A stretch of DNA of 63,002 nt. Source: a virus. Under the pieces are notes generated by a model. It saw only the letters and a list, made by a program, of their open reading frames with translations, did not search any database and was not told the DNA's origin. The stretch is from the IMG/VR virus record IMGVR_UViG_3300045988_138661, one strand, 5' to 3'. Every line of letters starts with the position of its first letter. The first letter of the stretch is position 1. Of the stretch, positions 22,276-45,364 are shown in pieces. The translations under genes and the position numbers were made by a program.

Positions 22276-22348
22276 TTATTTTTATAAAAAAATATAATAT
22301 AATATATATATAAAGTTAAGAAAGGTATTAAAAAGAGGTTGATAAGAT

Positions 22349-25504: not shown

Positions 25505-26611
25505 GTGAGAGGTTTTAAAACTAATGAACTTTGGTTATTTGAATATCTGGTTCGCTCGACACAAGATGAGTTAAGAGAATATGTTGCCGATGTATTGAAA
25601 GCTAAATATACTGAAGTAGTTATTACTAAAGAGTATGTTTGTGCGGTTGGCGATATTCCTATTGCTTTAGTAGCTCATCTTGATACTGTGTTTGAGAAAC
25701 CGGTCAAAGATTTATATTATGATACAAGAAAAAATGTGCTTTGGTCGCCCGATGGTCTTGGCGCAGATGATAGAGCAGGAGTATATGCGATTCTTCATAT
25801 TTTGAGAAATACATCTTTGCGTCCTTCTATTATTTTTACCACTGATGAAGAAATTGGTGGATTGGGCGCCGAAGCATTAGTATTACAATATTTTGAGTGT
25901 CCATTTCCCAATCTGAAATATATTATTCAGTTGGATAGACAAGGCACAAATGATTGTGTGTTTTATGACCTTTACAATCCTAAATTCATTGATTACATTG
26001 AATCTTTTGGATTTGTAGAGGATTTTGGCACGTTTAGTGATATTAGTGTTTTATGTCCTGAATGGAAAATTTGTGGCGTGAATCTTTCAGTAGGTTATAA
26101 AAATGAACATAACCGTATTGAAACATTAAATGCGGGTGCTCTTTTTGATACGATTAATAAGGTAATCCGCATGCTCAAAGAGAAAGATATTCCTAATTTT
26201 GAGTATTATCGTAATTATCATAGTATTTGGTTCGATAATATTTGTAAGAATTTTCCAACTGATGGCGATGGATTCTACGTTCATTGTAGAGGATGCGGTC
26301 AGTTATTTAGTGAATATGAAACATTTCCAGTAAAGGGATTAGATGGACATACATGTTTTTATTGCCCTGATTGTATTCCCAGTAATGTTGAATGGTGTGC
26401 GGAGTGTGAAGAGGCATTTGAGATTGACCCTGCGAACCCACACAGCGAGTATTGTAAAGATTGTATTGGAGGATTAGTCAAATGTCATATGACTTCGACA
26501 TCGAAAGCATTAAAGAACAGTTCAACAAAGTCATCAGTTACTCCCAAGGAATCAGTAATCCAAAAACAGAAGAACTATTCGAAAGATTCCTCGAAGCCAA
26601 AAAAGACTTAA
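25505..26611 (+). CDS. M20/M28/M42-type zinc peptidase-like protein with C-terminal zinc ribbons
   Basis: HLDTV, GADDRAG, TDEEIGG motifs; GTG start; 3-prime end overlaps next gene by ~130 nt. Confidence 0.5.
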   Translation: MRGFKTNELWLFEYLVRSTQDELREYVADVLKAKYTEVVITKEYVCAVGDIPIALVAHLDTVFEKPVKDLYYDTRKNVLWSPDGLGADDRAGVYAILHILRNTSLRPSIIFTTDEEIGGLGAEALVLQYFECPFPNLKYIIQLDRQGTNDCVFYDLYNPKFIDYIESFGFVEDFGTFSDISVLCPEWKICGVNLSVGYKNEHNRIETLNAGALFDTINKVIRMLKEKDIPNFEYYRNYHSIWFDNICKNFPTDGDGFYVHCRGCGQLFSEYETFPVKGLDGHTCFYCPDCIPSNVEWCAECEEAFEIDPANPHSEYCKDCIGGLVKCHMTSTSKALKNSSTKSSVTPKESVIQKQKNYSKDSSKPKKT

Positions 26612-27912
26612 TTAAATTTTTTCACGGTCATTTAATTTATGAATGGCCGGAAAAGGTATCTTTTTCCTTAGATGATAAAACTAAAGAGCATCGTCTTGAA
26701 GAGTTTCTTGAAACAATTAATTATACTTATAATAATGAAGACTTAAAGGATTTTATTTCAGTAAATAAAGAAGGATTCTTTAACAATACAGTTATAGATA
26801 CTTATTTCTATAAAGATAAAAAGATTCCAAGAGGAATGAAATTAGTTAAGGCTTTTAAGTATTTTGAAGAGAATCCACGCTCTTTGGAAGATATTCAGAA
26901 TTACGCAAGTCGTATTATCCAAGAGGACAAGATTGAGGGAACATTATGTTTCTCAGTTCATCCTTTGGATTTTTTAAGCGTAAGTGAAAATACTTATAAT
27001 TGGCGCTCTTGCCATGCACTTGACGGCGAATATAGAGCAGGAAATTTATCTTACATGGTAGATAAAAGCACTTTTATTTGTTATTTGCGCGGAGCAGAGA
27101 ATCAGAAACTTCCGCATTTCCCTGAAGATGTTCTTTGGAATTCTAAGAAATGGCGTATGCTTCTTTACATGGAAGATAAGCGACGTGGTTTAATGGCTGG
27201 TCGTCAATATCCTTTTATGACAACCAATGCTTTAATTAAAATTAAAGATATTATCAATACTTTTGATAAGACTTTTCAGTTGCGTGAATGGGTAGATGGA
27301 GGTATTAATACTGTTTCTAATAGGATGAGCACTACTTCTTTTGATGAAGAAACTATTGGATTATCCGAGACATGGATTCCTATTTTATCTCGTTTATATC
27401 CTATTAGTGATATTGTTGAAGATATTGGCGAGCATACTCTTCAATATAATGATTTGCTTTATTCTTCTTGCTATTTACCCATTTATAGTTTAAAATTGTA
27501 TTATTATCCATTAGAGACTGATCTTCCTCATTGGTCTATTGGTGGCGATGTCCCTTGTTTACAATGCGGTAAAACTATTATCGAAAGTGGAGAATATATG
27601 CGATGCGGAGACTGTGAATTCAATTATGGAGTAAACGAAGATGATAATTACGGTTATTGCGCTTGTTGCGGTTCTCGTATAATCCTTGATGAAGCAAATT
27701 CCGTAGGCGATGAGAATGAATTGGTTTGCGATAGTTGTGCAGATACTTATTGTAAACGATGCGAATGTTGTAATAATTTATATTATACAGAAGATATTCA
27801 CTATCATAAAGGAACTGATATGTATTTATGTCCTTGGTGTTTTAGAGATGCTGATGAAGAAAAAGTTAATAATTTTAGGTCTTTAAAAGACTTTATACAT
27901 AATTTTAGTTAA
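26482..27912 (+). CDS. large hypothetical protein with C-terminal zinc ribbons; paralog of 22349 CDS
   Basis: start moved to ATG after RBS ggagga (track start 26461). Confidence 0.55.
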   Translation: MSYDFDIESIKEQFNKVISYSQGISNPKTEELFERFLEAKKDLIKFFHGHLIYEWPEKVSFSLDDKTKEHRLEEFLETINYTYNNEDLKDFISVNKEGFFNNTVIDTYFYKDKKIPRGMKLVKAFKYFEENPRSLEDIQNYASRIIQEDKIEGTLCFSVHPLDFLSVSENTYNWRSCHALDGEYRAGNLSYMVDKSTFICYLRGAENQKLPHFPEDVLWNSKKWRMLLYMEDKRRGLMAGRQYPFMTTNALIKIKDIINTFDKTFQLREWVDGGINTVSNRMSTTSFDEETIGLSETWIPILSRLYPISDIVEDIGEHTLQYNDLLYSSCYLPIYSLKLYYYPLETDLPHWSIGGDVPCLQCGKTIIESGEYMRCGDCEFNYGVNEDDNYGYCACCGSRIILDEANSVGDENELVCDSCADTYCKRCECCNNLYYTEDIHYHKGTDMYLCPWCFRDADEEKVNNFRSLKDFIHNFS

Positions 27913-28230: not shown

Positions 28231-28402
28231 TTTAAAGAGTAATGTCATTTGACATTACTCTTTTTTTTTGTTATTATTTATTTAGTAAAAATGATAAATG
28301 GTTAGGTTTAACCGAAATTAAAAAATAAAATAAAATAAATTTTTAATAAAAATAGGATATATAGTATCCTAATTATTTATTTTATTAGGAGGAATTTTAA
28401 TA

Positions 28403-28819
28403 ATGACTGAATTAAATAATACCTTTAAGGTAGTTGTTACTGACAATGAAGGCAAAGAGACTGAAAGTATTATAACTGGTCCTATTGTTTTTTCTACAAG
28501 TATTAATGGAGAAACTAGCGGAATTAAATATACTTTTAGACTTCGTGAATATTCAAAAGGCTATGATGTTGAAACTTTAAGTTTACCTAAAGTTTCTGCT
28601 CAGCTTATTGGAAATTTTGATCGTTCAAAGGTTGCTAAAATTGGTGTATATTATTTAGCTGTTTCTAATGATTATAGAAAAGTTTTTGAAAAAAATGTTG
28701 CCAATATTGCTGAAATGGTATTCGAATATAATAATGATATTGGAGATAAGTCATATGCTAATAGTTATAACACTATAGCAGAGCTTAATATAACTTATAC
28801 TCCCGAGGCTGTAAATTAA
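28403..28819 (+). CDS. hypothetical protein (138 aa)
   Basis: RBS aggaggaa. Confidence 0.5.
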   Translation: MTELNNTFKVVVTDNEGKETESIITGPIVFSTSINGETSGIKYTFRLREYSKGYDVETLSLPKVSAQLIGNFDRSKVAKIGVYYLAVSNDYRKVFEKNVANIAEMVFEYNNDIGDKSYANSYNTIAELNITYTPEAVN

Positions 28820-28832
28820 GGAGAGAATATAA

Positions 28833-29555
28833 ATGGCTGGTAGTCGTATTTCATGGAGCGATGTTCGCGCTCTATATGATACTTTAAATACTGCTTAGAC
28901 TCGTTTTTCTCAATCTCGCACGGCTGCTCCCTCAAATGAGGGGCGTCGTACGAGAGAAAGTGACATTACTACTTTAAAAAATGAAATTGAAAATTTAAGA
29001 AATGTTTCTTATGTAGGAACTTAGGCTACTTTTTCTAATTTTACCGCTCCAAGAGCTAATGAACTTATGAAACGAGTCCCTTTAGAGGAAATTAGAAGTA
29101 AACTTGATACTATAAATGGCATTTGCGCCTATGATGGAGCGAATTATACAAGCAATAATGGTTATCGTGGTGCTAACTATACAAGTAATAATAGTCAACG
29201 TTCTTCTTATTATTCAAGTAATGATGCTCAACGTTCTTCTTATTATTCAAGTAATAATGCTCAACGTGCTTCAGATTATTCAAGTAATAATGCTCAACGT
29301 TCTTCAGATTATTCAAGTAATAATGCTCAACGTTCTTCAAATTATTCAAGTAACTATACTTATTATACTGCTAATTATTCAAGTAATAATGGTCATAGAT
29401 CTGCTAACTATAGTAGTAATAATGGTAATAGATCTTCTAACTATAGTAGTAATAATTCTCAACGTTCTTCAAATTATTCAAGTAATTATACTTATAGAAG
29501 TGCTTATGCTTCTAGAAGTTCAAATCGTAGTGGCGCTGGTAGAGTACGCTCTTAA
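28833..29555 (+). CDS. repeat-rich Ser/Asn/Tyr peptide (candidate RiPP precursor, ~240 aa incl. two in-frame TAG); about eleven ~11-aa repeats (consensus NYSSNNAQRSS)
   Basis: ATG 28833 after RBS aaggagag is in frame with track ORF 29067..29555 through TAGs at 28896 and 29022. Confidence 0.5.
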
Positions 29556-29586
29556 TTTTTTGAGAAAAAGGAGTTTTATAATATAA

Positions 29587-31086
29587 ATGTTTAAAGAAAT
29601 GGATATTAGAGCAATATCTTTAGTTTCTTCATGTGGATGTAATTTACATTGTAAATATTGTCTTATTGAGAATACTTTAAATAATTGCTCTGCAAATTTA
29701 CAACATGAAACTATTAAAGCTTTAAATGATGGTACTTTTTTAAATAATGTAAAAGGTATTTTTAAACGTTTAAATCTTGATAGATATAAAATAGAATGTT
29801 TTACTTTATGGGGTCAAGAGCCTACATTGACATTACATCTTCTTACTGATCATTTGGAAGATTGGTTTAATTATTTCCCAAATATTAATCATATTGACTA
29901 TTCTACTAATGGGATGGATTTTCCTGAAAGAACTGTTAATTTTATTAAAAAGGTTGATGAATTAGCAAATAATGAACTTGCTTTAGAAGTTCAATTCTCT
30001 TATGATGGCACTTACTCAACCAATAATATTAGAAATGCTAATAATGAAAAAATCTTTGAGACTGCTTCAACTGTAATTAAAGAATTAAATAAAATTAAAT
30101 TTCATAATGTAAATGTATCTATTCAATTACATGGTGTTCTTTCTGGAGCTTTAATTCATGAACTTAATACAACTCAAAAAGTTCATGATTATTATAAAGA
30201 TTTAGATAATTTTGGATTTGAATTAGCTGATATTAATCTTAATTAGAGAGTTGAAGTAAATAGTAGTGTATCTATTTGCCCTGAGAATCCAAGAGATGGA
30301 TCAGTTGATGAACGTATTGAATATGAGTCTTTCTTACAACGCATTGTTAATATTGATGTAAGTGATTTTCATGACCCACATCTTCCAGTTAGTATTATTA
30401 TTGGTTATCGTCATCTTTATGAAGAAGTATTTTCTGATTTACATGGATTTACTGGAGAAGATCGTCCAATTACGCCCCAAGAATTAATGCGATTAGTTAT
30501 GGAAGGAAATCAAGAAGCAATTACTGTAGCTTCAAGAAATAATTTTTGTAGTGGTAATTTTAATGAATTAAAATTACTTTATGATGGTACTATGATGTCT
30601 TGTCAAAACTTTATGTTTGATCTTGATGGTAATAATGTTAAAGATGATGGTACTATTGGAGCACAATTGAGAAAAGACACTCGTCGCACTAAAACTGATT
30701 GCATTAATCTTTTAACTGATAGTGAAGAAGATATTAATAAAGTTATATATAAATATAATATGTATAAAACACATTCCTTCCCATTTATGTTTCAAGCAAC
30801 TGTAAATACTTTACAAATGCTTAATGAATGCAATCAATTAAATTCTATTTACAAGTATAATCCTGATAAATTATTAAGATTGGCATTAATTGCAACAAAA
30901 ATTGATGCTTGTACTTATAATAATTTTATTTCTTCTGGTAGCGCGTTGTTAAGAAGTGTAGGCACTTTAAGAACTCAATCAGCACTATTTATGTATGTAG
31001 ATAGAGAAAATAATTTACTTAAACCCGAAGAAGAATGGTTCCGAAATACTGAAAATATGAATGAATATAGAGGAGAAAGTAATTAA
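29587..31086 (+). CDS. radical SAM enzyme (~499 aa, one in-frame TAG at 30244)
   Basis: CGCNLHCKYC = CX3CX2C motif near N-terminus; continuous frame with track ORF 30487..31086. Confidence 0.6.
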
Positions 31087-32489
31087 TGAATATTAGTGAA
31101 GGTTGTCAATTAGATAATAATAAATATTTTGAAAAATTTATAGATAATTATATTTTTAATAGGGATCACCAAGAGGAAGGATACTGGATTAATGGAGAGT
31201 CTTTTGAGCTTATTATAAGACCCGAATGTAATCAACAATGTGAATATTGTTATGTTGCACGGTATGGAGATAAACTCTATCCGATGGAGAAACGCGCCGA
31301 TAAGGAAACTCTTGTTCATAATACAGATATTATTTTGAATTATATCTTTAAAGAAAGAAAAGTTTTATTTCATGAAATGGAACTTTTTGCTGGAGATTTA
31401 TTTTATGATGATATTGGATTTGAAATTCTCGAATTAATGTTTAAATATTATAAAGAATTATTTGATGAACATCCAAATATTTTTAATTTCCATCCTCGTA
31501 TTGTAATTCCTAATAATTTTAGTTTTGCTATTGATGATAAAAAAGCTAAAAAAATGGAAGAGCTTTTAGCTAAATTTAAAACTATCAATATGGAAATAAG
31601 CCTTTCTTGTTCTATAGATGGACCTTATAATAGTGTGCGCGAGCGCGATAAAGATGATAGTTATTATACTAAAATTCTTGAATTCCTTCAAAGAAATCCT
31701 TGTGGTATTCATCCTATGATTTCTCCAAGTAATATTGAGAGTGCTATTAAGAATTTTGATTGGTGGGACGAACAATATGAAAAGTATAATCTTGCTGGTG
31801 AAGACATTCATGATTTTCAACCTATGTATTTGGAAGTCCGCAATGATGAATGGACTGATGAGAAATTAGATCATTATCTTGAATTTTTAACTCATATGCT
31901 TGAAGTAAGATTTCATAAAAATGGTGAGTCTGTAGATAAATTGGCAAGACATATTTTCTTAGGAGATGGAAAAGAAGGTTCTTTACCTTGTCTTGGTAAT
32001 TATGACCCTATTGGATTAACTTCTACTTGGAATAGTGAAGAATATACTTGCGCGATTTCGCATTAGACTTGTCTTTATGTGGCGAGTTTTGAATTTGCGC
32101 CTTGCCATAGAACTTCTTATCCTCAGTTTCTTGGTGGACGTCTTGATGTAAAAGATGACAAAGTAGTTGGTATTACTGCAATTAATCCTACTGTGTATAG
32201 TGTAATTAAAACGAATAATACACATATGAATATTGGTTGTTTAACTTGTCCTTTTGATCCTTATTGTTTAAAAGGATGTTTAGGCGCTCAGTATGAAGCC
32301 ACAGGTGATTTATTTGTTCCCGGTGAAAGCGTTTGTAAATTACATAAAACACATTTAACTTTTTTAGTAAAGACTTATTGTGAGTTGGGATTAACTAAAA
32401 TTGCAGTTGAAAAAAATTATTTTAAGAGTGAAGCAGATAAAGAAAAATGGCTTACTTTATGTCGTAAATTGGGGTATTATAATGATTGA
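31086..32489 (+). CDS. radical SAM enzyme with SPASM-like C-terminal Cys cluster (~467 aa, TAG at 32064)
   Basis: CNQQCEYC (CX3CX2C); C-terminal CLTCPFDPYCLKGCLGAQ. Confidence 0.6.
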
Positions 32490-32784
32490 AGAAATGAAAA
32501 GACAAATTCAACACTTAGATGATACTTTTGATCCTTCTAATGTTGGAGATTATAAAGATTTATTATATGTAATCTATTTAAATTGGATTGAAAATAATGG
32601 AGAAAACGAAGAAGTCAATTCTCTTATTAACAATTTAATTAAAAGAATTATTGATTCTAGCATTAATGATAATAATAATTGTGATAATTGTAATGAAGAT
32701 GAAGATCCTAATATGAGTGAAGATTATTTAATTTATCGCCATTTCTTAGGATATAAAATTCCTGGCTATTGGCGTAATCATTAA
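32486..32784 (+). CDS. hypothetical acidic protein (~99 aa)
   Basis: ATGA overlap. Confidence 0.45.
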
Positions 32785-33372
32785 TGTTAATTAATTTATA
32801 TAATGCTCGTCAAACTTTATTAAGATCAGTAAAGTTTGACGAGCGTGAATGCGATGATATTGTTTTTGGATTAAATTTTCCAAAAGAAATTACTTTTTGC
32901 AAAATTGTAAATAATTCAAATGATATAGAATATTCTTCATTAAATTATCTATATAGTCAATTAAAAGATTTAGAATATAAAGATATAAAAATTATTGAAT
33001 TAGTTTTTAATCAAAAACAAAAATTTACGTTTGAATCTACAGTAAAATCTATTTTTTATAGAACAATGTTATATTCAAGTTAGGGACAATTGGAATTTAA
33101 ATTATATTTAACTTTACGATTTGAAGAAGAACATCCAATTATTTACGATAAAGAAGAATAGATTTTAAAGTGTGACAAAAATTGTAAACAGTTAAATAGA
33201 AAAATACATCGTTGTGAATTTTTTCATAGTGATTTAAATGATATAAATGAAATTTGTACGGAATGTTTTTTGTAGGAAAGAGATAACCAAATAAAAGAAT
33301 TGGTTAATTATAATAGAGATATTATAAATGTTTTGGAGAATAAATATGGAAATAGATAGAACTAAAAATTAT
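32784..33372 (+). CDS. hypothetical protein (~196 aa with four in-frame TAG); Cys pairs
   Basis: manual codon walk: only TAG interruptions until TAA. Confidence 0.4.
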
Positions 33373-35423
33373 CAAGGGATTCCTCCTTATACTAATCCAA
33401 TATGGAAATCGGTTTATGATGGTGTTAGTTTAGAAATGCATATTGTAGATCATTGTAATCTTAATTGCGCAGGATGTAATCATTTTTCCCCTTTAGCAGA
33501 ACCTTGGTATATTGATTTAGATGATTTCCGTGATCAGATTACTTTTGCTTATAAAAAAATTCCAAATATAAAACTTTTTATGATTTTAGGTGGAGAACCT
33601 ACTTTGCATCCAAAATTATTTGAAATATGTTAGATTGCTAGAGAAGTTTTCCCAAAAAATAAAGTAGAAATTAAAATATTAAGCAATGGGTGTCATTTAC
33701 AAGATGCTTTTAAACATGAGAAAGAATATCAAGATATGGGAGTAATATTTGATATTACTACTTATGGGAAATATACTGATCATAAAGCGGTAGAATATTT
33801 AGACAGTCATGGTTTAGGTTTTAATCATAATTCAAGATTATTTATGCGACAATAGCTTGTAAATGAAGCAGGAACTACTGATATAAATGAAGTATATTTT
33901 CATAAATGCCCGCATTAGTTACCTTGTTTTACTTTAAAAAATTATAAAATTTATATATGTCCTTTTTCTGCACATTTGGATATTTATAGAAAAAAATATA
34001 ATGTAAATATTCCAGAAGATGAAAGTGATTATTTGCGATTAGAGGATATAAATAATTTAGATGATTTACATAATTTTATTTTTAAGCCTAAAAATATTTG
34101 TAGATATTGCGATGGAACTATGTCTAAAGCCTCTTGGATTTGGCACAAATATTATGATACAAAATCGGAATTTATAGTTCCAATGGAAGATGCTTATTTT
34201 AGAGATTATGATTTTTATTTAAAATTAGTTAATGATAAAGAAAATTTTTTAGAAAATTATTAGTTATTTAAAGAAAACAGATGCCCAATTGAATTTAGAT
34301 ATAATACTTATTATTTAAAAAAATGTTTTACTCGTTTTATTGATGGAAAAATGGATATTATAATACCTTATTATAATATGAATGATTAGCAAATTATTAA
34401 TTTGTATAATAATTTATCTACCCAAACAATTATAAAAGATTGTTGTGTATATTTTATTAGCGACCATTCTTTCTATGATAAAAAACTTATTGAGATATTT
34501 GATGAAGCGAGTTTTCCTTGTTTCTTTTTTAAGAATTTAAAACGAAAAGGACCAGGTCTAACTCGTAATTTAGGATTAGAATATTCTTTTAATAAATATG
34601 TGTTATTTTGGGATTCTGATGATTTATTCCCAAATGATAATGTTTTAGAAATTTTATATAATTCAATAAAACATAATGAGAAAGATTTTGGAGTATTTAA
34701 AATAGCTAATACTGATAAATCAGTTGAAAAGATTAATTTAATTCTTAAAAGAGATTTTCTTAATAAAAATAATATAAAATATTCAAAATTTTTCTTTGGA
34801 GAAGACAGTATTTTCTTGGATAGATGTGATATTTATGGTGAATCTTATGAGTTAGAAGACTAGAATTTAGGTCTTTATATAACTTAGTTAGAAGACAATC
34901 CTAATTGTTTATCTCATTCTAATTCTAACATGGTAATTACAGCATATATTAATAAAATAATTGTATTTTTTGCTAATTTTATTGATGTTTTGAAATTAGA
35001 AAATATTGATGAAAATCGTAAACAAAGTACTTTAAGACGGAATCTTTATAGAATTATTAATGAAATAAAATCAATAAGTGATTTAGATTCTTCTTTTTAT
35101 GGATATGAAAATAATTATTTTTTAGAAAAAATTCTTCTTTTAATTTATTATATTTTATATACTATGTATAATTTATATAGTAACAAAGAAGATTTTAATA
35201 ATATTCCCAATTTGTGTAATTTAGATAAACAAATTATAGAAGATATCAAAAGTTAGAAAATTAAATTTAGTCTTCTAAGAGGAGAATGTATAACTAATTT
35301 TGATGATATTAAAAATGAAATTTATCCATTGTTAAATTATCTTAACAATGAATTATGCTATGTGCCTACTTATGAATGGTTTCTGAATTATTTAGATGGA
35401 AAAGGAGAGAGTATTTATGATTG
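33328..35423 (+). CDS. radical SAM domain fused to GT2-like glycosyltransferase-like region (~698 codons, eight in-frame TAG)
   Basis: CNLNCAGC CX3CX2C and GGEPTLHP near N-terminus; later GPGLTRNLG..YVLFWDSDDLF resembles GT2 DxD region; track ORFs 33328,33976,34402,34930 all in frame 1 separated only by TAG. Confidence 0.5.
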
Positions 35424-35599
35424 AAACTTATCAAGAATATAAAGAAAAAGTTTATTTTCTTCTAAATAATTTTTTAGATTTTACTAAAGGAGATAAACCT
35501 TATTTATTTAATATGCCTTCAAAATTAGGCAATCTTCCTAATCTAAATGAATATTTATATTTTTGTTTTAATAAATCTGATGCAGGAGAAAATAAATGA
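35418..35599 (+). CDS. hypothetical small protein (60 aa)
   Basis: overlapping start, TGA stop. Confidence 0.4.
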
Positions 35600-36132
35600 G
35601 GTTTACTGATTATCATTTTGGATAGGCAGAGTCTGACTTTTGGACTTTATTAAAAGAATTTCTATTAAGGTTTGATCCCAATAGTATTTATGATTTTTGG
35701 ATTTTATTTATTTATTTTTAGTTAGGTATTATTAGAAAAGATAGATTTATCATTTATTAGGTATAGTATATTTTAAAAGAAAAAATAGATTTTGAAGAAA
35801 TTAATGAAGTAAATTTTAATACAATTATTCCAATAGAAAAGATAAATTTATCTAGTTTAAAAGATTGTATTTGGATAAGCTATTGGATTTGTTAGTATAA
35901 TTATTAGAATGATGAAAATTTAATTTTAATTTATAGTGAGAAAATATTTAATAATCTTACTAATATTTTTGAGCCGGATATTGTTATAGATATTCCAATA
36001 GTGTAGTAGAGTAATAAAATATGTAAAATGTGCGGTTTAGAGTCTAAATCTAATGGATAGAATATACCATTTTTTAAAATAAATGATAATAAATATTTAT
36101 GTCCTAATTGTTATTATTTATTAAAATTAAAT
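35596..36132 (+). CDS. hypothetical protein (~178 aa, nine in-frame TAG), C-terminal CxxC pairs
   Basis: ATGA overlap with upstream TGA; manual codon walk ends at TAA. Confidence 0.4.
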
Positions 36133-36231
36133 GAATAATTATTAAAACCTACTTTTATAGTAGGTTTTAATTGATTTTTAATAAAAAATAATGTATTATA
36201 ATTATAAGATAAATGAAAAGGGTGTGTTTAT

Positions 36232-38016
36232 GTGAATAATTATAATCAACATTATAAAGAAATAAGTCCTATTGAGACTGTTAATAATATTAAAAATTTT
36301 TTAGAAGGACGCGGATTTACTTGTGTTGAGGAAGCTTTACGACAAGAACAATCAACTACTTGGAGTCTTGTATTAAATCTTGAATACAAAGGACATTTTG
36401 TGCTAAAAACTTATGGCAAAGGTGTTACAAAAGAATTCGCCAGAGCTTCTGGTTATGCGGAAATGTATGAGCGTTTTTGTAATGGAATGCACTATCTTTG
36501 TAATTCTTTTCTTTGTGCGGAAAAAATTGAATTAAATAGAAAAAATTATGGTTATTCTTTGTTTAAAAATGAAAAGCCTTTAAGTTATAAAGAGGCACTT
36601 GGAGGAGAAGATACTCTTTTATATAAACTTTTTGATCGTTTGAATAAGAAAGATAATGGTTTATTAGAGGATTATTTTAAAACTATTTATAATAATGAAT
36701 TTTTTGGAATACCATTTAAAGGAGTCAACATTAATAAAACTTTATATATGGATCCTCGTCTTCTTCAACGTTATCATGGTAGTTCGGGAATGGCAGCCGG
36801 CAATACTTTTAATGAAGCCTTAAATCAAGGTTTATCTGAAATTTTCGAGCATTATGTTTTAAGTAATTTTTATATTGATATTGATAATAAAGATTTTTAT
36901 TTTTATGATACAGATAGTATTAAAGATGAAAAATTAAAAAATATTATTAGTGCGATTAAATCTCATAATAATAACTTTTATATTATTGATATGTCAAGAA
37001 CTTATAATGTGCCTGTTATGGTAGCAATTTTGATTAATAAATATAGTGGTACTGTAGCTATTAATTTTGGTGCTTTCCCTGTATTTGAAATTGCAGTTGA
37101 GCGAGTTTGTACTGAAATGTATCAAAATTGTTTTTCTTTTGATACAAGAAAAACTTCAGTTGTATCTCCGTATTATTCTTTAGATAAAGAAGATATGGTT
37201 ATAGATGGCGGTTCTTGTATTACAAATCTTAATACTTTTCCTGAGAGTTTATTCTTGAATAAGAAATTTGTAAATACTATTAATAAAGATGTATTTTTAT
37301 CTTATACTGATAAAAATTACTCTAATGATGAAATCTTAGAGCATAATAAAAAGATTGCTACTAATATTGGAGCAGATATTTATTGTGCTGATGTATCTTT
37401 AATTGATACCGTATCTGCGATTAGTATTTATGTTGATAATCTTGACGGGCTATGGAAATCTTTCTTTGATAGATGCCAAGGAGTTAAAGAAACTGGAGAA
37501 GCAATTACTATAACTAAAAATAAACATTTGGCCATTAAAAACTATTTAAATAATAAAGATAAAGTATATGATGTAATTAAATATTGTCTTGATTATTATA
37601 ATATTACTTTTGACAAAATTGTAGATAGATTTTGTGGTTTACTTACTCATGGAGATCAATTAGTTGCTTATAATAATAAAAATATATTATTAACACCTAA
37701 TGAGATGTTTGTTAAAAACCTTTATATGGATGCAACAGGATATTTATTAGAAGATGAAGGATTTTCTTTAGATATTTCAGTTAGTTGTTTTTATACTTAT
37801 TATAAAAAATATTTAACTTTATTAGCATATGTTCACAGTAGAAAATATACTAAAGAAGATATGATTAAAATTTTCAAAGAATTTGATTATACTTTTACTG
37901 ATGAAGATTTTAAACATATTACGGATAGAAAATATTTAGTAGAAAAATGTATTTTAGAGCCTATGTATAATACATTTAGAAGCAATGATTTTAAAGAAAT
38001 GATTAAAAATTATTAA
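36232..38016 (+). CDS. YcaO-domain protein (594 aa)
   Basis: N-terminal YGKGVTKEFARASGYAEMYERF matches YcaO signature GKG.T...A..SA..E..ER. Confidence 0.6.
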   Translation: MNNYNQHYKEISPIETVNNIKNFLEGRGFTCVEEALRQEQSTTWSLVLNLEYKGHFVLKTYGKGVTKEFARASGYAEMYERFCNGMHYLCNSFLCAEKIELNRKNYGYSLFKNEKPLSYKEALGGEDTLLYKLFDRLNKKDNGLLEDYFKTIYNNEFFGIPFKGVNINKTLYMDPRLLQRYHGSSGMAAGNTFNEALNQGLSEIFEHYVLSNFYIDIDNKDFYFYDTDSIKDEKLKNIISAIKSHNNNFYIIDMSRTYNVPVMVAILINKYSGTVAINFGAFPVFEIAVERVCTEMYQNCFSFDTRKTSVVSPYYSLDKEDMVIDGGSCITNLNTFPESLFLNKKFVNTINKDVFLSYTDKNYSNDEILEHNKKIATNIGADIYCADVSLIDTVSAISIYVDNLDGLWKSFFDRCQGVKETGEAITITKNKHLAIKNYLNNKDKVYDVIKYCLDYYNITFDKIVDRFCGLLTHGDQLVAYNNKNILLTPNEMFVKNLYMDATGYLLEDEGFSLDISVSCFYTYYKKYLTLLAYVHSRKYTKEDMIKIFKEFDYTFTDEDFKHITDRKYLVEKCILEPMYNTFRSNDFKEMIKNY

Positions 38017-38027
38017 TAGGAGATTAT

Positions 38028-38906
38028 ATGAATATTAATTTTAATTGCCCTGAATTTTACTATGGGATTGAAGTATATGATAAACTTTTTGAATTACAAG
38101 AAATTGCTCCAGAAGCATTTTATCCAGAAGCCAAGGTAAAGTATATATATGGCTGTCTTCCTAATATGATTTGGAATGGTGGCGGATTTATGGATGGACG
38201 TCCAGAGCATAATATTGATTATCTTTGCGCAATGCGTGATTTTTATGAAAAAAATAATATTATTTTACGTTTTACATTGACAAATCCGCTTTTAGAAGAA
38301 ACTGACGTTTATGATAGATACTGTAATGAAATGTTAAAACTTTTTGATAATGGTATTAATGAAATTATTGTTAATTCTCCTATTCTTGAGCGCTATCTTC
38401 GAGACAAATTTCCTAATTATAAGTTGACTAAAAGTATTACGGCAGCAAAAGAAGATTATGATTTTGTAAAAGCTCTTGATAATTATGAAAGCATTGTCCT
38501 TCCTCGTCGTCACAATAGAAATTGGGAACTTCTTGATTCTATTCCAAAAGATAAAAGAGAGAAAATTGAAATTCTTGCTGATGAAAGTTGTCCTATTGAT
38601 TGTCCTCGTCTTTATACTCATTACAATGTTTTTGCAAATTTTAGTTTGTTTAAAAAAATTGATGACTCTCAGCGTAATTGTACTACTATGAAAAATAATG
38701 GCGCAGTTTTTCCTGAAATTGATAATAAAGATATGATTTATATGGATGAAATTTTAAATACTTATTTACCAAAAGGATATAATAATTTTAAGATTTCTGG
38801 GCGCAATTGCGCTGACCATTGTGCAAAATCTATTACTCCGTATTTTTTTAAACCAGAATATCAATTAGAAGGTTTTTGCGAGTTGCTCGATATTGGTTTG
38901 AGTTGA
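38028..38906 (+). CDS. hypothetical protein (292 aa), Cys motifs CPIDCP
   Basis: RBS taggagat. Confidence 0.5.
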   Translation: MNINFNCPEFYYGIEVYDKLFELQEIAPEAFYPEAKVKYIYGCLPNMIWNGGGFMDGRPEHNIDYLCAMRDFYEKNNIILRFTLTNPLLEETDVYDRYCNEMLKLFDNGINEIIVNSPILERYLRDKFPNYKLTKSITAAKEDYDFVKALDNYESIVLPRRHNRNWELLDSIPKDKREKIEILADESCPIDCPRLYTHYNVFANFSLFKKIDDSQRNCTTMKNNGAVFPEIDNKDMIYMDEILNTYLPKGYNNFKISGRNCADHCAKSITPYFFKPEYQLEGFCELLDIGLS

Positions 38907-39030
38907 TTTTAACTCCTTACTATTTTATTTAGTAAGGAGTTTTTTTTTTATTTAACCAGATTAAATTAATGACTTCTTATAAATTTTTAAATTTTATAGA
39001 AATAATAAAATTTATAAGGAGGTCATTTAA

Positions 39031-39585
39031 ATGGCAATTCCAAAAGCAATAGAACATATGCGTAGTGGAAGTGGCGGTTTAGAAATTATTCCAATTATTT
39101 CTACTGATGGATTAACTTACACAGGAACCGCAAAATCTATTAAAGAATATAAAGACGGAATGATTATTGGTCTTATTCCAAATATGAATAATATTGCGAC
39201 AAATCCAATTACTAATATAACGATAAATATAAATAATTTAGGAGCATTAAAATTAACTCAATATTATATTAAAAAAGAACATTCTAATAATGGATTAGGG
39301 TGTTGGCACAGCAATACTGCTGTAGAAGCCAATTTTTTATATAAAGATGAAGCTTTTATTGGATAGATACAATTAGGGTCATCTAGTGGTGATTATATTT
39401 TACCTATTAATCCAGGATTAGACTTAGCTTAGATTACTAATGGTTCTATTGGGTCTAATTTGTCTGTCACTGCTAATTCTTCTTATTTAAACAATAATAT
39501 TTTAAGAAATATTAAAGTATCTACTTCTGCTCCCACCGCTTCAGACGGAAATGTTGGAGATATTTGGATTTAGTATTTCACTTAA
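39031..39585 (+). CDS. phage structural protein candidate (~184 aa, three in-frame TAG)
   Basis: RBS aaggaggt; continues in frame past TAG 39364 to TAA 39583. Confidence 0.45.
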
Positions 39586-39601: not shown

Positions 39602-41017
39602 ATGCCAAATACTTATAATCCTTCTGGAACTTCTATAACAGATTATTCTTCTATTAAATTTATTCCAGGAGATATTATTAATAGTAGCTATTCAGGAGCG
39701 GTAAATCCAGTAAAACTTCCAACGGGAAATTATCAATTAGAATGTTGGGGTGGCTATGGTGGAATTGGTTATTCTGGTTCTTTAACTTCATCAACAACAA
39801 CTTCATGGATATATATAGGAACTAATAATGCAACTAGTTATTTTAGCATTAATAATGATTCAAATTATTATTTCCGTCAAGATGGAAATGACTGGATAGC
39901 TACAAATGGCGGTATACATTCAAGTACTGCAACCACTACATTAACTTGTACTTCTGCGGGAACTTACAAGATTTATTATTATTATCAGACTGAAGTAAAT
40001 TGTGATAAAGTTACTTTAACTGTTGGAGGATCAACGGTTTTAAATGCCGTATCGGGGTCATAGTCTTTAACTGAAGCTGGTAGCTATTCTTTATCATCAG
40101 GGTCTACTATTGTAATGACTTATTCTAAAGATAGTTCAGTAAATGCCGACAATGAAGAAGTTTATTTTTAGATTTAGAAATAGGAGAGTAATACTACTTA
40201 TACTCCCACAAGTTCAAAAAATAGTTATTGGGGTGGAGCAGGAGGATATTCTACAGGAATTCTTTCTTTATCAGCCCCTACTGTTATCTATTTGTATACA
40301 GGAGGTTAGGGTAATTATTCAAGTAATAGTGAAAAAGGAAAAGTAGTTAGTGGCGGATTTAACGGAGGAGGTAGCTCTAGAATCAGATGGTATACTTCTG
40401 CTTATACATCAGGAGGTGGCGGAGGTGGCGCTTCCGATGTTCGTATAGGCCAAGACTCTCTTTACGCCCGTGTAATTGTTGCTGGCGGTGGTGGCGGTGG
40501 CGCAGGAGAAAGCAATTCTTCTATTAAATAGGGCGGTGGATTAACTGGTAATTCTGCTGTTGAAGAATATAAAGCTACGTAGACTAAAGCCGGAACAAAT
40601 GGATCTTTTGGCCAAGGGGCTGATGCTAGTGGATCTGCCAATTATAATTATGGTCCCGGTGGTGGTGGTGGAGGCTGGTACGGTGGTGGTGCTTCTACTA
40701 ATGTTAGTGACAGTTCCGCCGATTATAGAACTTATAATGGCGGAGGTTCTGGCTATGTATATACTTCATCAACTGCCTCTAATTATCCTTCTGGCTGTTT
40801 GTTAAATAGTAATTATTATTTAACAAATGCTTCTACTGCTATAGGATATAGTAAAACCAATCCAGGAGGGCAACATGGGTATATTCGTATTACAGTATTA
40901 TCTCCATTAAATGTAAAAATTAATCCTAACACCTATGCTCCTATTAAAGCAATATATACAAAAATAGATAACACAACTTGGAAAGGAGGAATGACTACAT
41001 GGCAACCTATGACTTAA
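39602..41017 (+). CDS. glycine-rich repeat protein (~471 aa, about seven in-frame TAG), paralog of next gene
   Basis: LECWGGYGG, GGGGGGASDVRIGQDSLYARVIVAGGGGGG, GGGSGYVYTSSTASNYPSGCLLNS blocks shared with 40999 CDS; frame continuity checked (726 nt = 242 codons between 40064 and 40790). Confidence 0.55.
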
Positions 41018-42336
41018 CTTCTTCGATTCCTTCTTCTTCTTCTTTAAGAACGGGGGATATATTAAATTGTCCTTATAGTGGATCTGCTAAATCAATTACT
41101 CTTCCAAAAGGCACTTATAAATTAGAATGTTGGGGAGCACAAGGTGGAAATGCAGGTTATTATAGTTATGTTCATTCAACCCCTAATGGAGGAAAAGGTG
41201 GATACTCTACTGGTGTAATCACTTTATCTTCAAGTGTTATAGTATATCTTTATACCGGAGGACAAGGAGGAAGTACTATCGGGAATAAGCTAGACTAGAA
41301 TTCAGTAGCTACAGCACCTGGTGGATTTAATGGAGGTGGCATCGCTAATCAAATGGGAGCCGCTGGTGGTGGTGGAGCTTCTGATATTCGCATAGGCCAA
41401 GATTCTCTCTATGCTCGTATAATCGTCGCTGGAGGCGGTGGTGGTGGAGGCAATGCGAGTAGTTCTACTTTATTATCTTGTGGCGGAAATGGTGGAGGAA
41501 CTACTGGTGGAACTCCACCTAATTAGCACAATAATAGAACCCCAGGAAAAGGAGGAACTCAAACTGGAATAACAGCTAGTCGTTCATCATCAATTTCTGC
41601 GGGATTTGGTAATGGAGCTGGTGGTACGGGAGAAAATCTTCGTGGAGCCGGTGGCGGTGGCTGGTATGGTGGAACTATGGGTGAAAATTCAACTGGCGGA
41701 GGTGGAGGTTCTGGTTATGTATATACTTCCTCAACTGCTTCTAATTATCCATCTGGTTGCTTATTGAATAGCACTCATTATCTTAGTTCTGCTTCTACAA
41801 TAGCTGGCGACACTTCATTCACTTCTCCAACAGGGTCATCTGAAACAGGTCATAGCGGAAACGGGTATATAAGAATTACTATTTAGTCTATTGTTAACTG
41901 GGCTTATTCTACTGTATCAATTCCTGCTCCTACTTATAGTAAATAGGATACTTCTTCTTGGACTTTATCTCCGAGTGCTTGCAGGTATTTTTCTTTTACC
42001 CCTACTATTTCAGGAGATTTTATTGTTTATTCCAATTCTTCAATAGATACTTTTGGCTATTTAACATCAAATATTGTTTCTCTTAATAGTAGTGGATAGC
42101 CTTCTTCTAATATTTTAGCTAGTGATGATGATTAGGCAAAAAAATATGGTGGATCTGGAAGTAATTTTGGTATTTGTTATAAAGTTACTGCTGGAACTAC
42201 TTATTATATATATGTTAAGCCTTATCGTGATAGTACAGCAAATAGTTCAGTATATTTAACTTATTATATGGCTCATCCTGACAGTAGAGTATATGTAAAA
42301 ACAGATAGTACAACATGGAAATTAATAACCAATTAA
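40999..42336 (+). CDS. glycine-rich repeat protein with C-terminal PPC-like beta domain (~445 aa, several in-frame TAG)
   Basis: RBS aaggagga; track ORFs 40978 and 41677 in same frame; ends TAA 42334. Confidence 0.55.
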
Positions 42337-42508
42337 AAAATTTTTTGACATTTTAAAAAAAATAATATATAATATATTTATAAAATAAAGAAAGACCTTT
42401 ACAGCAAAAATAACTTCCAGAATAAACTAATGATTAAGTCATAATCCTTTAAGATTAAAATAATGGTTCAACTCCATTTTCCGGACAAAGTTAAGGTCTT
42501 GTTTTTAT

Positions 42509-42583
42509 AGGCGTCTGGTGTAACGGTAGCATGCGGGTCTCCAAAACCTTGCGGTGTGGGTTCGAATCCTACGACGCCTGCCA
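42509..42583 (+). tRNA. tRNA-Trp (CCA)
   Basis: cloverleaf by hand: acceptor aggcgtc/gacgcct, anticodon loop ctCCAaa, T-loop ttcgaat, CCA encoded. Confidence 0.7.
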
Positions 42584-42667
42584 TTTTAGACAAAAAGAAC
42601 TTTTTTGATTTTATTAAAAATATATAATATAATATATATAGAAAGTTGAGAAAGGAGAAAATAAATA

Positions 42668-42850
42668 ATGAATATTGAAGTTGGTAATTCTTATTGTTTT
42701 GTCCCTTATCGTGGTCGTTGTTATCGTAGACAGTATCTTAAATGTACTGTTATTCGAGTATTAAATTATCAGATTGAAGTCCTTGATGAGCATGGTGAAA
42801 AATGGCTTCTTTCAGAAGATGATTTAATGCCAATTCAAAGACCTTATTGA
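42668..42850 (+). CDS. hypothetical small protein (60 aa)
   Basis: consensus promoter-leader directly upstream. Confidence 0.5.
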   Translation: MNIEVGNSYCFVPYRGRCYRRQYLKCTVIRVLNYQIEVLDEHGEKWLLSEDDLMPIQRPY

Positions 42851-43002
42851 CATTTTATAAAAAATATTATATAATATTTATATAAGATGAGGAAAGAAAA
42901 AAGAAAATAAAAAACTTTGGGTAAAAGAGAAAAGTTGATTTTTTAAAAAAAATATAATATAATAAATATATAAAGTAAGGATTTTAAAAGTCCTTCTTTT
43001 AT

Positions 43003-43550
43003 GGGAGTGTAGCTCAGTTGGTTAGAGCACGCGGCTGTTTACTTGACCTTATCATTTTCTTATAAAAAAATGAAATGAATAGTAAACAAAAAGGTAATAT
43101 TACCGAGCTTGAAACAATGTTAGCATTTATGAAACTTGGTTATAATGTTCTTACTCCTTACGGAGATTGTGAGCGTTATGATTTTGTGGTTGATGTAAAT
43201 GGTAAATTTATTAGAATTCAAGCTAAAACATCGCGAACCGAAGATGAAGGAGCTTCTTTTATTTTTTCTGGTAGAAGTTGCCATAGAAAAGATGGAAGAA
43301 TAGTTCATCATCAATATACTAACGAAGAAATTGATTACTTCGTAACTACTTTTAATGGAAAATGTTATTTGATTCCAGTGGAAGAGTGCGGAGCAGATAA
43401 AAGACTTCGTATTCTTCCACCTAAAAACAATCAAGTAAGAGGTATTACTTGGGCGAAAGATTATGAGTTGGAGGAAGTAGTAAGAAAATGGTAAGCTGAT
43501 GTGTAAGCAACCGCGGTTTGTCGTGAGTTCGAGTCTCTCCTCTCCCGCCA
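43003..43550 (+). tRNA. tRNA gene (Asp-GUC if spliced) split in the anticodon loop by a ~469-nt insertion
   Basis: 5-prime half gggagtgtagctcagttggttagagcacgcgg + 3-prime half ccgcg..gagttcgagtctc..ctctccc g cca; anticodon stems cgcgg/ccgcg complementary. Confidence 0.5.
43075..43494 (+). CDS. ORF inside the tRNA insertion; possible PD-(D/E)xK-type nuclease (139 aa)
   Basis: YDFVVDVNGKFIRIQAK resembles D..(D/E)xK core; location inside a tRNA gene. Confidence 0.35.
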   Translation: MNSKQKGNITELETMLAFMKLGYNVLTPYGDCERYDFVVDVNGKFIRIQAKTSRTEDEGASFIFSGRSCHRKDGRIVHHQYTNEEIDYFVTTFNGKCYLIPVEECGADKRLRILPPKNNQVRGITWAKDYELEEVVRKW

Positions 43551-43790
43551 TTGGGGCGTTAACACGGATTTTGTAAGTTTAAACTACCACCGATCGAAAG
43601 AGTATGTGGCTTGCGGAAAACGCCCGACTAAATATAAGGAAGCGAAGTAAAACTTATTGTGAAATAGTAGCTATACTCACATTAATCAAGGCTATGGGTT
43701 CTGGGAATCCAAAAGAGTAAAAGTTGGTTCGAGTCCTAACGATTGACGAAGTTCGAATCTTCGCGATGTGGGTTATAAAACTCTTTATTT

Positions 43791-43867
43791 GCTGGTGTAG
43801 CCGAATTGGCATAGGCGAATGATTTAGGATCATTAATCTGAAGGTTCGAGTCCTTTCTCCAGCACCA
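43791..43867 (+). tRNA. tRNA with anticodon UAG (Leu by anticodon) but short variable loop; A73
   Basis: acceptor gctggtg/ctccagc, anticodon arm aatga-tttagga-tcatt, T-loop ttcgagt. Confidence 0.55.
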
Positions 43868-43954
43868 GTCCCTCCCTGGGAATGCGTTGAAGGCTTGCGA
43901 ACTTTGAACGCAGGTGGTTGGCAACTCCATCTATACATAAATAAGTTGCGTTTT

Positions 43955-44033
43955 GGGCTTCGGGACTGCATGGCGTGGTCGTCTGTCTTGCACACAGAAA
44001 ATCAGGTGAGTTCGATTCTCACGAGGTCCACCA
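43955..44033 (+). tRNA. tRNA-Ala (UGC)
   Basis: G3-U70 pair present, anticodon loop cttgcac, T-loop ttcgatt, A73 CCA. Confidence 0.55.
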
Positions 44034-44600: not shown

Positions 44601-44610
44601 TCTTAGTTAT

Positions 44611-45212: not shown

Positions 45213-45282
45213 GGGATATAAATTCTACAACCTTCACGTGGTATATCCTGTTTTTACTAATGTAGAATAAAATAAATAATAT

Positions 45283-45360: not shown

Positions 45361-45364
45361 TATG

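Follow-up and report, generated by a model that had tools for sequence, protein, structure and literature searches.

In a stretch of 63,002 nt from the virus record IMGVR_UViG_3300045988_138661 (IMG 3300045988 metagenome), called the window here and used at its full length for all positions, an island of 10,675 bp encodes a repeat protein (REP), three radical S-adenosylmethionine (rSAM) enzymes, a YcaO protein and a protein with the fold of the U32 family. The island is probably a self-contained, dispensable maturation cassette acting on REP, of the type known from ribosomally synthesised peptides with post-translational modifications (RiPPs). Its anatomy, the superfamilies of its enzymes, their conservation and co-inheritance, and the boundaries and dispensability of the island can be read directly from the window and its relatives. 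We infer the link between enzymes and substrate from genetic linkage, co-inheritance and family neighbourhood, and the same holds for the chemistry and for what becomes of the product (cleaved peptides, a released protein or an optional virion decoration). A preliminary description of the window had called the region a RiPP-like biosynthetic cluster. The gene architecture expected of such clusters, a precursor-like protein with a leader-like and a variable part beside its presumed enzymes, is indeed present and genetically linked, and a precursor-like REP next to rSAM enzymes of peptide-modifying type recurs in 52 distinct cassettes; what did not stand are the role and type given to YcaO, the inclusion of an upstream peptidase and the universal use of recoded TAG.

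Translated with table 11, the region breaks up into many short open reading frames (ORFs), whereas with TAA and TGA as the only stops it resolves into a tight series of co-oriented genes. Read in this way, the island and its putative signals are as follows, with the number of in-frame TAG codons given for each gene.

28234-28263, plus strand: terminator-like hairpin of the preceding backbone gene g27913, overlapping the promoter-like site
28249-28277, plus strand: sigma70-like promoter site, a consensus match only (11/12), spanning the left island junction
28268-38942, plus strand: accessory island, 10,675 bp, 26.0% GC (remainder of the window 36.5%)
28403-28819, plus strand: g28373, 138 aa, 0 TAG, stopping 13 bp before REP, window clade only
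28833-29555, plus strand: REP, precursor-like, 240 aa, 2 TAG
29142-29486, plus strand: tandem DNA repeat within REP (TRF: 33-bp period, 10.5 copies, 82% matches)
29587-31086, plus strand: rSAM1, 499 aa, 1 TAG
31086-32489, plus strand: rSAM2, 467 aa, 1 TAG, SPASM domain
32482-32784, plus strand: s32482, small acidic protein, 100 aa, 0 TAG, window clade only
32784-33365, plus strand: g32784, 193 aa, 4 TAG, Cys-rich C-terminus CX3C...C...CX2C
33328-35424, plus strand: fusion of rSAM3 with a glycosyltransferase family 2 (GT2) domain, 698 aa, 8 TAG
35596-36138, plus strand: g35596, 180 aa, 9 TAG, C-terminal CxxC...CxxC of zinc-ribbon-like appearance, window clade only
36141-36171, plus strand: terminator-like hairpin between the REP operon, which contains TAG codons, and the YcaO/U32 unit, which has none
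36232-38016, plus strand: YcaO, 594 aa, 0 TAG
38028-38906, plus strand: U32-fold TIM-barrel protein, 292 aa, 0 TAG
38911-38941, plus strand: terminator-like hairpin and T-run, right end of the island

Neither g28373 nor s32482 has a match in Pfam, NCBIfam or PHROGs.

The core of the island is the trio REP, rSAM1 and rSAM2. The comparison covered about 125 related loci. Loci were fetched around YcaO homologues and around rSAM2 homologues in viral contigs and in genomes, the window proteins were mapped by jackhmmer onto the six-frame ORFs of these loci with TAG read through, and cassettes were counted as distinct where rSAM2 fell below 90% identity. REP, rSAM1 and rSAM2 are contiguous and in constant order in 103 loci on phage or provirus contigs, corresponding to 52 distinct cassettes, and since the order recurs in that many the arrangement is not a matter of chance. 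REP was detected by profile in 32 of the 52; in about ten more, one or two tandem REP-like genes are visible on inspection upstream of rSAM1, beginning with M[GA]F[TS]W..D[IV]..G..I.A.D[IV]NE[IV] and continuing into Asp/Tyr/His/Ser-rich tails. Three divergent cassettes are carried by a single 175-kb contig (JALFQD010000409.1, 174,861 bp; loci L096 and L097), with pairwise identities for REP/rSAM1/rSAM2 of 36/37/47, 31/28/35 and 28/23/35%. The three proteins thus rank the cassette pairs near-identically, and the trio has therefore been duplicated or acquired as a unit. Multiple cassettes, up to three per phage-sized contig, were also seen in IMGVR_UViG_3300045988_175607 and _177309. Searches of INPHARED by megablast with the cluster and by tblastn with YcaO, REP and rSAM2 returned nothing relevant. 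Campylobacter CP220-type phages were considered as relatives and set aside: with a standard-code rSAM2 homologue as query, their rSAM genes are only 21% identical and the context is unrelated.

Residues 103-223 of REP form eleven in-register tandem units of 11 aa, xxY[ST]SNNxxRS, which together with the 33-bp period of the DNA bear out the earlier report of a protein of ~240 aa with about eleven 11-aa repeats. The leader, put at ~78 aa in that report, measures about 100 aa: the N-terminal domain spans residues 1-100 and ends at a conserved cysteine, Cys98 (GICAYDG). The tail contains 42 Ser, 28 Asn, 21 Tyr and 14 Arg among 143 residues, has no cysteine apart from that at the junction, and closes with SNRSGAGRVRS. 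An AF2 model predicts three helices for residues 1-100 (predicted local distance difference test score, pLDDT, 65-80) and disorder for the tail (pLDDT ~30). An ORF of 156 aa in another frame (29116-29586) lies wholly within the repeat region; most likely it arises from the repeats and does not represent a gene.

A search for relatives of the repeat protein, as the preliminary description had proposed, was run with a profile of the N-terminal domain against 1.84 billion representatives and yielded 344 clusters (50% identity). In every case residues 1 to ~107 of a protein of 60-422 aa make up the domain, followed by a hypervariable tail that is Tyr-, Cys-, His- or Phe-rich on a Ser/Asn/Gly/Thr background (S 15%, N 15%, G 12%, T 11%, C 6.5%, Y 5%, H 4%, F 4%). 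Periodic tails are common (CSNTCSGQA, HSSKSCTHST, CCNTNSTNAN, GSNFSFGF, AYDGSYNGSYRASNN). A cysteine marks the junction of domain and tail in 123 of 131 members, in the form KVKCRN in many members outside the window, and many end in T[IV]DI..N. In the closest relatives REP is 79% identical and the enzymes 94-98%; REP evolves faster than its enzymes. A conserved N-terminal handle and a hypervariable C-terminal part, encoded beside dedicated enzymes, are a hallmark of RiPP precursors. With E values of up to 1 admitted, Pfam, NCBIfam and PHROGs still gave no match to the N-terminal domain, and Foldseek with the REP model gave no significant match in PDB or BFVD. Its identification with a known leader or virion domain was accordingly rejected on both family and fold, and none of these five databases links REP to a structural Ser/Asn-rich fibre, one of the two outcomes that the preliminary description had regarded as fatal to its own proposal.

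In the tails of 35 non-redundant members, N-x-[ST] occurs 430 times against 288 +/- 13 in shuffled tails (z 10.7). This sequon-like excess is only suggestive: [ST]N dipeptides are also enriched (z 14.4), giving an overall [ST]N-x-[ST] pattern, and the repeats are not independent, so that N-glycosylation is kept as a remark only. For the REP of the window, a three-residue cyclophane at Tyr-X-X was rejected, there being no constant third residue after Tyr, as was His-Xaa-Ser or Cys-thioether chemistry, the corresponding repeats being absent; for both, enzyme scores are far below the family cut-offs. One member of 373 aa (P0289) has a Phe/Asp/Asn/Ser-rich repeat tail followed by a Hint/intein-like domain, CLIPGT...HNYIANDIIVHN, a hint that the tail of some members may process itself or be ligated.

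All three rSAM proteins contain the CX3CX2C motif, as the preliminary description had observed for the enzymes that follow REP (C18/C22/C25 in rSAM1, C48/C52/C55 in rSAM2 and C43/C47/C50 in rSAM3, read from the sequence). PF04055 recognises rSAM3 (31.5 bits, 2.5e-7, cut-off 29.5), which also matches PF13353 (1.5e-5), and scores rSAM1 below the cut-off at 25.8 bits; the assignment of rSAM2 comes only through profiles, PHROG 1802 and seven SPASM cysteines (C322, C340, C385, C388, C394, C398 and C417) that are invariant in 11 diverse homologues. The SPASM-like C-terminal cysteine cluster described earlier for this second enzyme is thus well founded: besides the seven cysteines, TIGR04085 (SPASM) matches seven of the 11 family members (best 7.8e-7; the window protein scores 19.3 bits against a cut-off of 27), and the rSAM2 profile aligns to the SPASM region of CteB (5wgg, 1.1e-5). 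The model for the ranthipeptide maturase PapB matches all 11 members (best 1.9e-15) and that for QhpD ten of them, with further matches to Nif11 maturase, SCIFF maturase and SPASM models. In rSAM1 three further cysteines are invariant (C321, C339 and C442), a set that resembles a twitch-type auxiliary site. The rSAM1 family matches the PapB, YhhB, DynA, GggB, twitch and anaerobic sulfatase maturase (anSME) models of NCBIfam, and its best profile match in PDB is to anSME (4k37, 1e-5).

On these profile matches, the nearest families of rSAM1 and rSAM2 (PapB, CteB, YhhB, QhpD and anSME) are all peptide- or protein-modifying. The comparison with SPASM and twitch families suggested by the preliminary description therefore comes out on the side of such maturases, with all scores below cut-off, and no family match assigns the enzymes to a group without a peptide substrate. 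The best NCBIfam scores of the two window proteins are 16-26 bits against cut-offs of 170-600, which places them outside every named maturase family; PapB, HxsB/C, YhhB/XyeB 3-CyFE, CteB/SCIFF, CXXX-repeat and anSME were all tested by cut-off and none was reached. Because every score falls far below the curated cut-offs, rSAM1 and rSAM2 are new subfamilies of the SPASM/twitch group that acts on peptides and proteins.

Around this trio the other enzymes vary. Within 10 kb, a U32-like gene is present in 20 of the 52 distinct cassettes, rSAM3 and/or GT2 in 16, YcaO in 13 (a figure biased high, some loci having been fetched via YcaO), g27913 in nine, and the peptidase and zinc-ribbon genes that lie upstream of the island in eight. 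The YcaO, U32-fold and rSAM3/GT2 genes are accessory to the trio. No correlation between the type of tail and the accessory enzymes (YcaO, U32, GT2) was evident by inspection. The fusion of the third rSAM enzyme to a GT2-type region with an FWDSDD motif, already described, is confirmed by PF00535 over residues 344-488 (1.5e-11, 45 bits, cut-off 23.3), which gives it the GT-A domain and DxD motif of GT2 enzymes, with PDB matches to 7wzv_A (1.5e-7, the best for rSAM3) and to GalT1 (5hea, 2.9e-5). A standard-code provirus (L089) has this fusion too, and elsewhere the halves are also found as separate genes.

The YcaO signature reported before is clear (PF02624, 5e-28), and the closest protein is E. 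coli YcaO (4q84, 1.1e-21). Its ExxE pairs, E77/E80 and E203/E206, are invariant in 37 homologues, in motifs (..YAEMYERF and ..LSEIFEHY) that align with GEYFERL and LSEVFERY of the E. coli protein; we take these residues to bind ATP/Mg, following the work on 4q84-4q86. The best NCBIfam family, NF040716 (YcaO_for_S12), scores 100 bits against a cut-off of 700, TIGR03266 33.5 against 365 and TIGR03604 36 against 219 (3e-9); MusD (5e-8) and TruD (2e-4) are weak matches. Among the island proteins, Pfam and NCBIfam reveal no E1-like or Ocin-ThiF partner, no TfuA and no SagB-type or FMN dehydrogenase, the protein ends in ...EPMYNTFRSNDFKEMIKNY and not in PxPxP, and the island has no rSAM gene of MiaB/RimO type. 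Since the YcaO is of E. coli type and neither the partners nor a PxPxP end were found, an azoline or thioamide product is not established, and the earlier view of YcaO as a standard core component of such a RiPP cluster fails also on its presence in only 13 of the 52 cassettes.

About 50 full-length YcaO relatives of ~590 aa share 30-37% identity, several of them on contigs of 100-270 kb. In three loci (L016, L003 and L008) the YcaO ORF, read from stop to stop, overlaps or abuts that of REP. YcaO and U32-like genes are neighbours in many loci, and YcaO is duplicated in L012 and L013. A 188-kb phage (L004/L011, 6728-7459 and 18774-21157) has a distant YcaO (P0021, 31% identical) near a ThiF-family gene and two other rSAM genes; no REP was detected there, and this may be a different YcaO-based system.

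The remaining accessory protein has the TIM-barrel fold of the U32 family, although PF01136 scores only 19.3 bits against a gathering score of 22.4 and matches three of 13 homologues. It has an invariant C188-x3-C192...C218 and a nearly invariant H198 (at least 90%). Characterised U32 members are O2-independent, prephenate-dependent hydroxylases of RNA or quinones (PMC5727448, PMC6599085, PMC6747719, PMC10990095), and those with an Fe-S cluster carry a four-cysteine motif, CX6CX15CX3/4C (PMC6747719). Homologues of g32784 adjoin U32-like genes in seven distinct cassettes. In the provirus L089 a gene of the DAHP-synthase family (14154-14972, 1.7e-72) stands beside the cassette and three U32-like paralogues, followed by the large terminase (16082-17977); it may supply prephenate for U32-type hydroxylases, or serve sugar synthesis for GT2.

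A scan seeded with the upstream peptidase recovered nine contigs that belong to this phage group. Three of them (IMGVR_UViG_3300045988_126669, _126226 and _118370; the set L121, L124, L126) have flanking genes mostly 85-100% identical to those of the window and lack the island, the homologue of g27913 directly preceding that of window 39031-39585. By blastn, homology ends at window 28267-28269, within the T-run that follows g27913's terminator-like hairpin, and restarts at 38943-38944. Three other contigs (119030, 110853 and 137271 of the same metagenome) carry a second allele of the island at the same site, with proteins 40-70% identical between flanks of 92-99%, and contigs 118866 and 152116 have the island. 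The island thus behaves as exchangeable, fast-evolving, dispensable cargo resembling a phage 'moron', with the presence/absence polymorphism, the promoter-like site and terminators and the atypical GC content expected of one. Because near-identical phages lack it altogether, REP is not needed for building a particle.

The same phages allowed a decision on genes upstream that the preliminary description had associated with the cluster. The M20/M42-like peptidase (25505-26611) does have weak matches to M28 (1.8e-4) and M20 (3.1e-4), and a Cys-rich tail of its own, and the paralogy of the two zinc-ribbon proteins on either side of it is real (31.6% identity, 1.8e-15; 22346-23953 and 26482-27912, ~480-535 aa, with Cys-rich C-termini). 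All three genes are also found upstream of cassettes in several lineages; they are nevertheless retained in the island-less phages, as is g27913, and so belong to the phage backbone and not to the cluster. One island-less relative (L124) has an extra insertion of ~0.7 kb (12436-13171) between the zinc-ribbon gene and g27913, and the intergenic zone near g27913 may be an insertion hot spot. Downstream of the island the window encodes two proteins with an ALK/LTK glycine-rich domain, an endolysin-like gene and tail fibres. The Gly-rich proteins, immediately after the island, are ~44% identical paralogues (39602-41017 and 40972-42336; PF12810, 3.9e-35) and are kept in island-less relatives.

Recoding of TAG is confirmed by a suppressor tRNA, given below, and by the distribution of the codon: in frame, it is missing from plus-strand genes between ~8.5 and 24 kb and present in many genes from 24.6 kb onward. 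Within the island the count is 25 for the REP operon and none for the YcaO/U32 unit. The statement that all genes use recoded TAG was thus too broad, as YcaO, the U32-like gene, g28373, s32482, the upstream peptidase and the zinc-ribbon genes contain none. This uneven distribution, along the window (8.5-24 kb against 24.6-63 kb) as between the two units of the island, suggests code-dependent timing of expression. The relevant tRNA lies outside the island:

52191-52263, plus strand: amber-suppressor tRNA, anticodon CTA, in an array of 18 tRNA genes

It is needed for translating REP, the three rSAM genes, g32784 and g35596. Glutamine is the residue most frequently aligned to TAG, at 12 of 51 positions, which is consistent with TAG being read as Gln and is not decisive. 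The tRNA array extends over 42416-52926, where ARAGORN also places, at 42416-42486, an unusual tRNA whose anticodon is called with two bases.

The phage as a whole is roughly 190 kb in size (related contigs are 124-197 kb) and reads TAG as sense. Its host probably belongs to the gut Clostridia: most matches in genome collections are contigs assigned to this class (Gemmiger, Oscillospiraceae, Lachnospiraceae, Roseburia, Neglectibacter), and distant versions of the cassette are on contigs binned with sediment and halophile lineages. Standard-code versions, at 45-56% GC, also exist. One is in the genome record of the Clostridiales Family XIII bacterium PM5-7 (L089; JBNDKG010000001.1, about 86-108 kb; not labelled as a metagenome-assembled genome), where it adjoins a large terminase and is therefore part of a provirus. 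Elsewhere in the window, positions 1-6000 have 42-45% GC against ~36% for the rest and are followed by 4 kb in which the GC skew is reversed; Pfam matches none of ten ORFs from 1-11 kb, and the first 6000 positions may represent a separate module or mark a boundary. At 19317-19991 a predicted lipoprotein is encoded, with a signal peptide ending in LTAC and a DUF5052 domain (2.4e-42).

We propose that the N-terminal domain of REP would serve as a leader-like handle for the enzymes, and that rSAM1 and rSAM2 would introduce radical modifications, most likely intrachain cross-links, into every repeat unit. Lineage-specific extras (rSAM3-GT2, YcaO and the U32-fold protein) would tailor the same substrate: rSAM3-GT2 may glycosylate REP, possibly with a sugar that is itself rSAM-modified, the ATP-using YcaO of E. 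coli type may activate the backbone or assist one of the rSAM enzymes, and the U32-fold protein may work either as an anaerobic hydroxylase or as a peptidase. Because translation of the REP operon requires an active amber-suppressor tRNA, the product would be made late, for release at lysis or for optional display on the virion. Several observations weigh against this proposal. PapB, for instance, scores 21-22 bits against a cut-off of 340, no island enzyme comes near the cut-off of any named family, and the chemistry can therefore not be transferred from known enzymes; the tails, Tyr-rich here and Cys-, His-, Phe- or Asp-rich elsewhere, are too diverse for a single chemistry to be named easily. 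At up to 446 aa, REP proteins exceed classical RiPP precursors in size, and in many of them a C-terminal motif is conserved. No RiPP recognition element (RRE) or PqqD-like domain was found by Pfam or NCBIfam in any island protein, though a structurally divergent RRE could still reside in g32784, g35596 or s32482; the CX3CX2C motif begins at residue 18 of rSAM1 and 48 of rSAM2, leaving no space for one at the N-terminus. YcaO and the U32-like protein occur together without REP within 10 kb in L012 and L019, and these two may have another substrate.

The most ambitious extension of this proposal, a new phage-borne class of large, hypervariable Ser/Asn/Gly/Thr-rich polypeptides matured by rSAM enzymes, stapled in each repeat and tailored by YcaO, by a U32-type hydroxylase that may depend on prephenate and not need O2, and by rSAM3-GT2, is one that we put forward tentatively, as possible though doubtful. 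The preliminary description had favoured a multi-core RiPP, and on that model modified REP would be cut into some eleven cross-linked undecapeptides, for instance after the arginine of each unit by a trypsin-like protease of the gut or host, and these would be freed at lysis as diffusible bacteriocins or signals that aid the phage or its lysogens. The leader of ruminococcin C is reportedly removed by trypsin. Eleven near-identical units with one Arg apiece, a leader followed by a variable core, and the status of the island as an optional cargo module, as expected of a fitness factor, all agree with the model. So does the existence of two-rSAM sactipeptide systems in gut Clostridia, of which ruminococcin C is an example (PMC8188230). 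However, no protease, transporter or immunity gene is recognisable in the island by Pfam, NCBIfam or PHROGs: the U32-fold protein is a protease candidate only by family name, and the upstream M28/M20-like peptidase is a backbone gene that the island-less phages have as well. Many relatives, moreover, have non-periodic tails of 150-330 aa in which no basic residue recurs regularly and T[IV]DI is conserved at the C-terminus; these look more like proteins than like strings of peptides. We regard cutting into small peptides as rather unlikely.

If REP stays whole, it might instead decorate the virion, as a low-complexity 'hair' or fibre that is anchored by its N-terminal domain and made protease-resistant or adhesive, for example to mucus, by cross-linking and glycosylation. 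Among mycobacteriophages, virion proteins are known to be glycosylated by phage-encoded enzymes, and the island does encode a GT2 domain and a tail rich in Ser, Asn and Thr with the [ST]N-x-[ST] excess. Many members conserve both ends. Several unrelated phages have the cassette immediately downstream of tail-fibre-like genes (L100, L075, L049, L003, L052 and L098) or near a terminase (L089), and in the window it falls in the TAG-containing late region, upstream of the Gly-rich and tail-fibre genes. Yet cargo genes, too, classically sit in the region after the tail-fibre genes, near-identical phages do without the whole island, and the N-terminal domain matches no known virion protein or fold and in none of the 344 clusters is joined to another structural domain, so that we think this role unlikely.

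More improbable still is the idea that YcaO and the U32-like protein, perhaps with the rSAM enzymes, modify a ribosomal protein, rRNA or tRNA of host or phage in the manner of YcaO-RimO, RlhA or TrhP, REP being an unrelated co-traveller. The YcaO is indeed closest to the E. coli type, an accessory in S12 modification, the U32 members characterised so far act on RNA or quinones, and rSAM1 has its best PDB match in anSME; YcaO and U32-like genes are adjacent even without a nearby REP (L012 and L019), and the window has them in a transcription unit of their own that is free of TAG. Against this, the adjacency of REP in 52 cassettes and the duplication of the trio as a unit argue strongly that REP is the substrate of rSAM1 and rSAM2, the YcaO and REP ORFs overlap or abut in several lineages, as noted above, and YcaO and U32 lie within the same indel as REP. 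We therefore retain maturation of REP by the island's enzymes as the preferred interpretation.

If it is correct, large gut phages carry exchangeable machinery for making chemically modified polypeptides. If the tentative extension also holds, three enzyme types never before shown to act on such substrates (YcaO, U32-type and rSAM-GT2) would do so, the orphan YcaO of E. coli type and the U32 family would gain a protein substrate, and a phage 'weapon or coat' would be seen to evolve as an exchangeable cassette. The two new rSAM subfamilies, the orphan YcaO, the U32-fold protein and rSAM-GT2 have no known reaction or substrate in this setting; natural pairs of phages with and without the island offer a direct route to the benefit of the product for the phage, and the standard-code version in the PM5-7 provirus a route to its chemistry. 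RiPP mining misses clusters of this kind where stop-codon recoding fragments their genes, and neither full-text searches of the literature nor a term search within a jumbo-phage paper found the system described.

Several known systems invite comparison. E. coli YcaO, the RimO/S12 accessory protein (4q84), is of similar length (586 aa against 594), shares the ExxE residues, has no E1-like partner and, like the island protein by its gene neighbourhood, is tied to rSAM enzymes that act on protein. The island YcaO differs in its score of 100 bits against 700 and its divergent C-terminal half, PF18381 being found only in distant homologues, and its neighbours are rSAM enzymes of SPASM/twitch type, not RimO/MiaB methylthiotransferases. 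With SagD, TruD, MusD and YcaO-TfuA it shares a YcaO domain with ATP-binding residues and a substrate candidate rich in Ser/Thr, with Cys in relatives, whereas Ocin-ThiF/E1-like proteins, a SagB-type dehydrogenase, TfuA and PxPxP, which belong to thiazole/oxazole-modified microcin and thioamide systems, were not detected in the island. Compared with the U32 family (Mk0906, 5d88; UbiU/UbiV, RlhA, TrhP), the island protein has C-x3-C-x25-C plus His in place of CX6CX15CX3/4C and scores below the Pfam gathering threshold, and a protein substrate would be new for the family. The anSME enzymes, acting on sulfatases, and QhpD, acting on the gamma subunit of quinohemoprotein amine dehydrogenase, are near in sequence to the rSAM enzymes here, and as in those cases the substrate may stay a protein; their substrates are enzymes modified at one or a few sites, and no sulfatase or dehydrogenase gene is near the island.

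Sublancin, a glycocin of the SPbeta prophage of B. subtilis, is a small, disulfide-stabilised and S-glycosylated peptide with a dedicated exporter. Its locus, like phage morons in general, is similar to the island as dispensable phage-borne cargo with a promoter-like site and terminators and a ribosomal product accompanied by a GT2 enzyme, and is unlike it in having no rSAM enzymes, repeats or YcaO. The rSAM/SPASM systems (PapB ranthipeptides, CteB SCIFF, ruminococcin C, HxsB/HxsC, CXXX-repeat and Cys-every-fifth) are close as well. The island departs from them in its scores far below cut-off, in the lack of a detected RRE and of a known leader family for the N-terminal domain, in precursors of 150-446 aa, in a window tail that is Cys-free past the junction and in being a dispensable island carried by phages. 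It shares with them a precursor directly upstream of the rSAM genes, with a conserved N-terminal and a variable, repeated C-terminal part, paired rSAM enzymes, a seven-cysteine SPASM domain and, in many members, Cys-periodic tails, and it looks like an apparently undescribed and widespread phage counterpart of the bacterial gene clusters for modified peptides.

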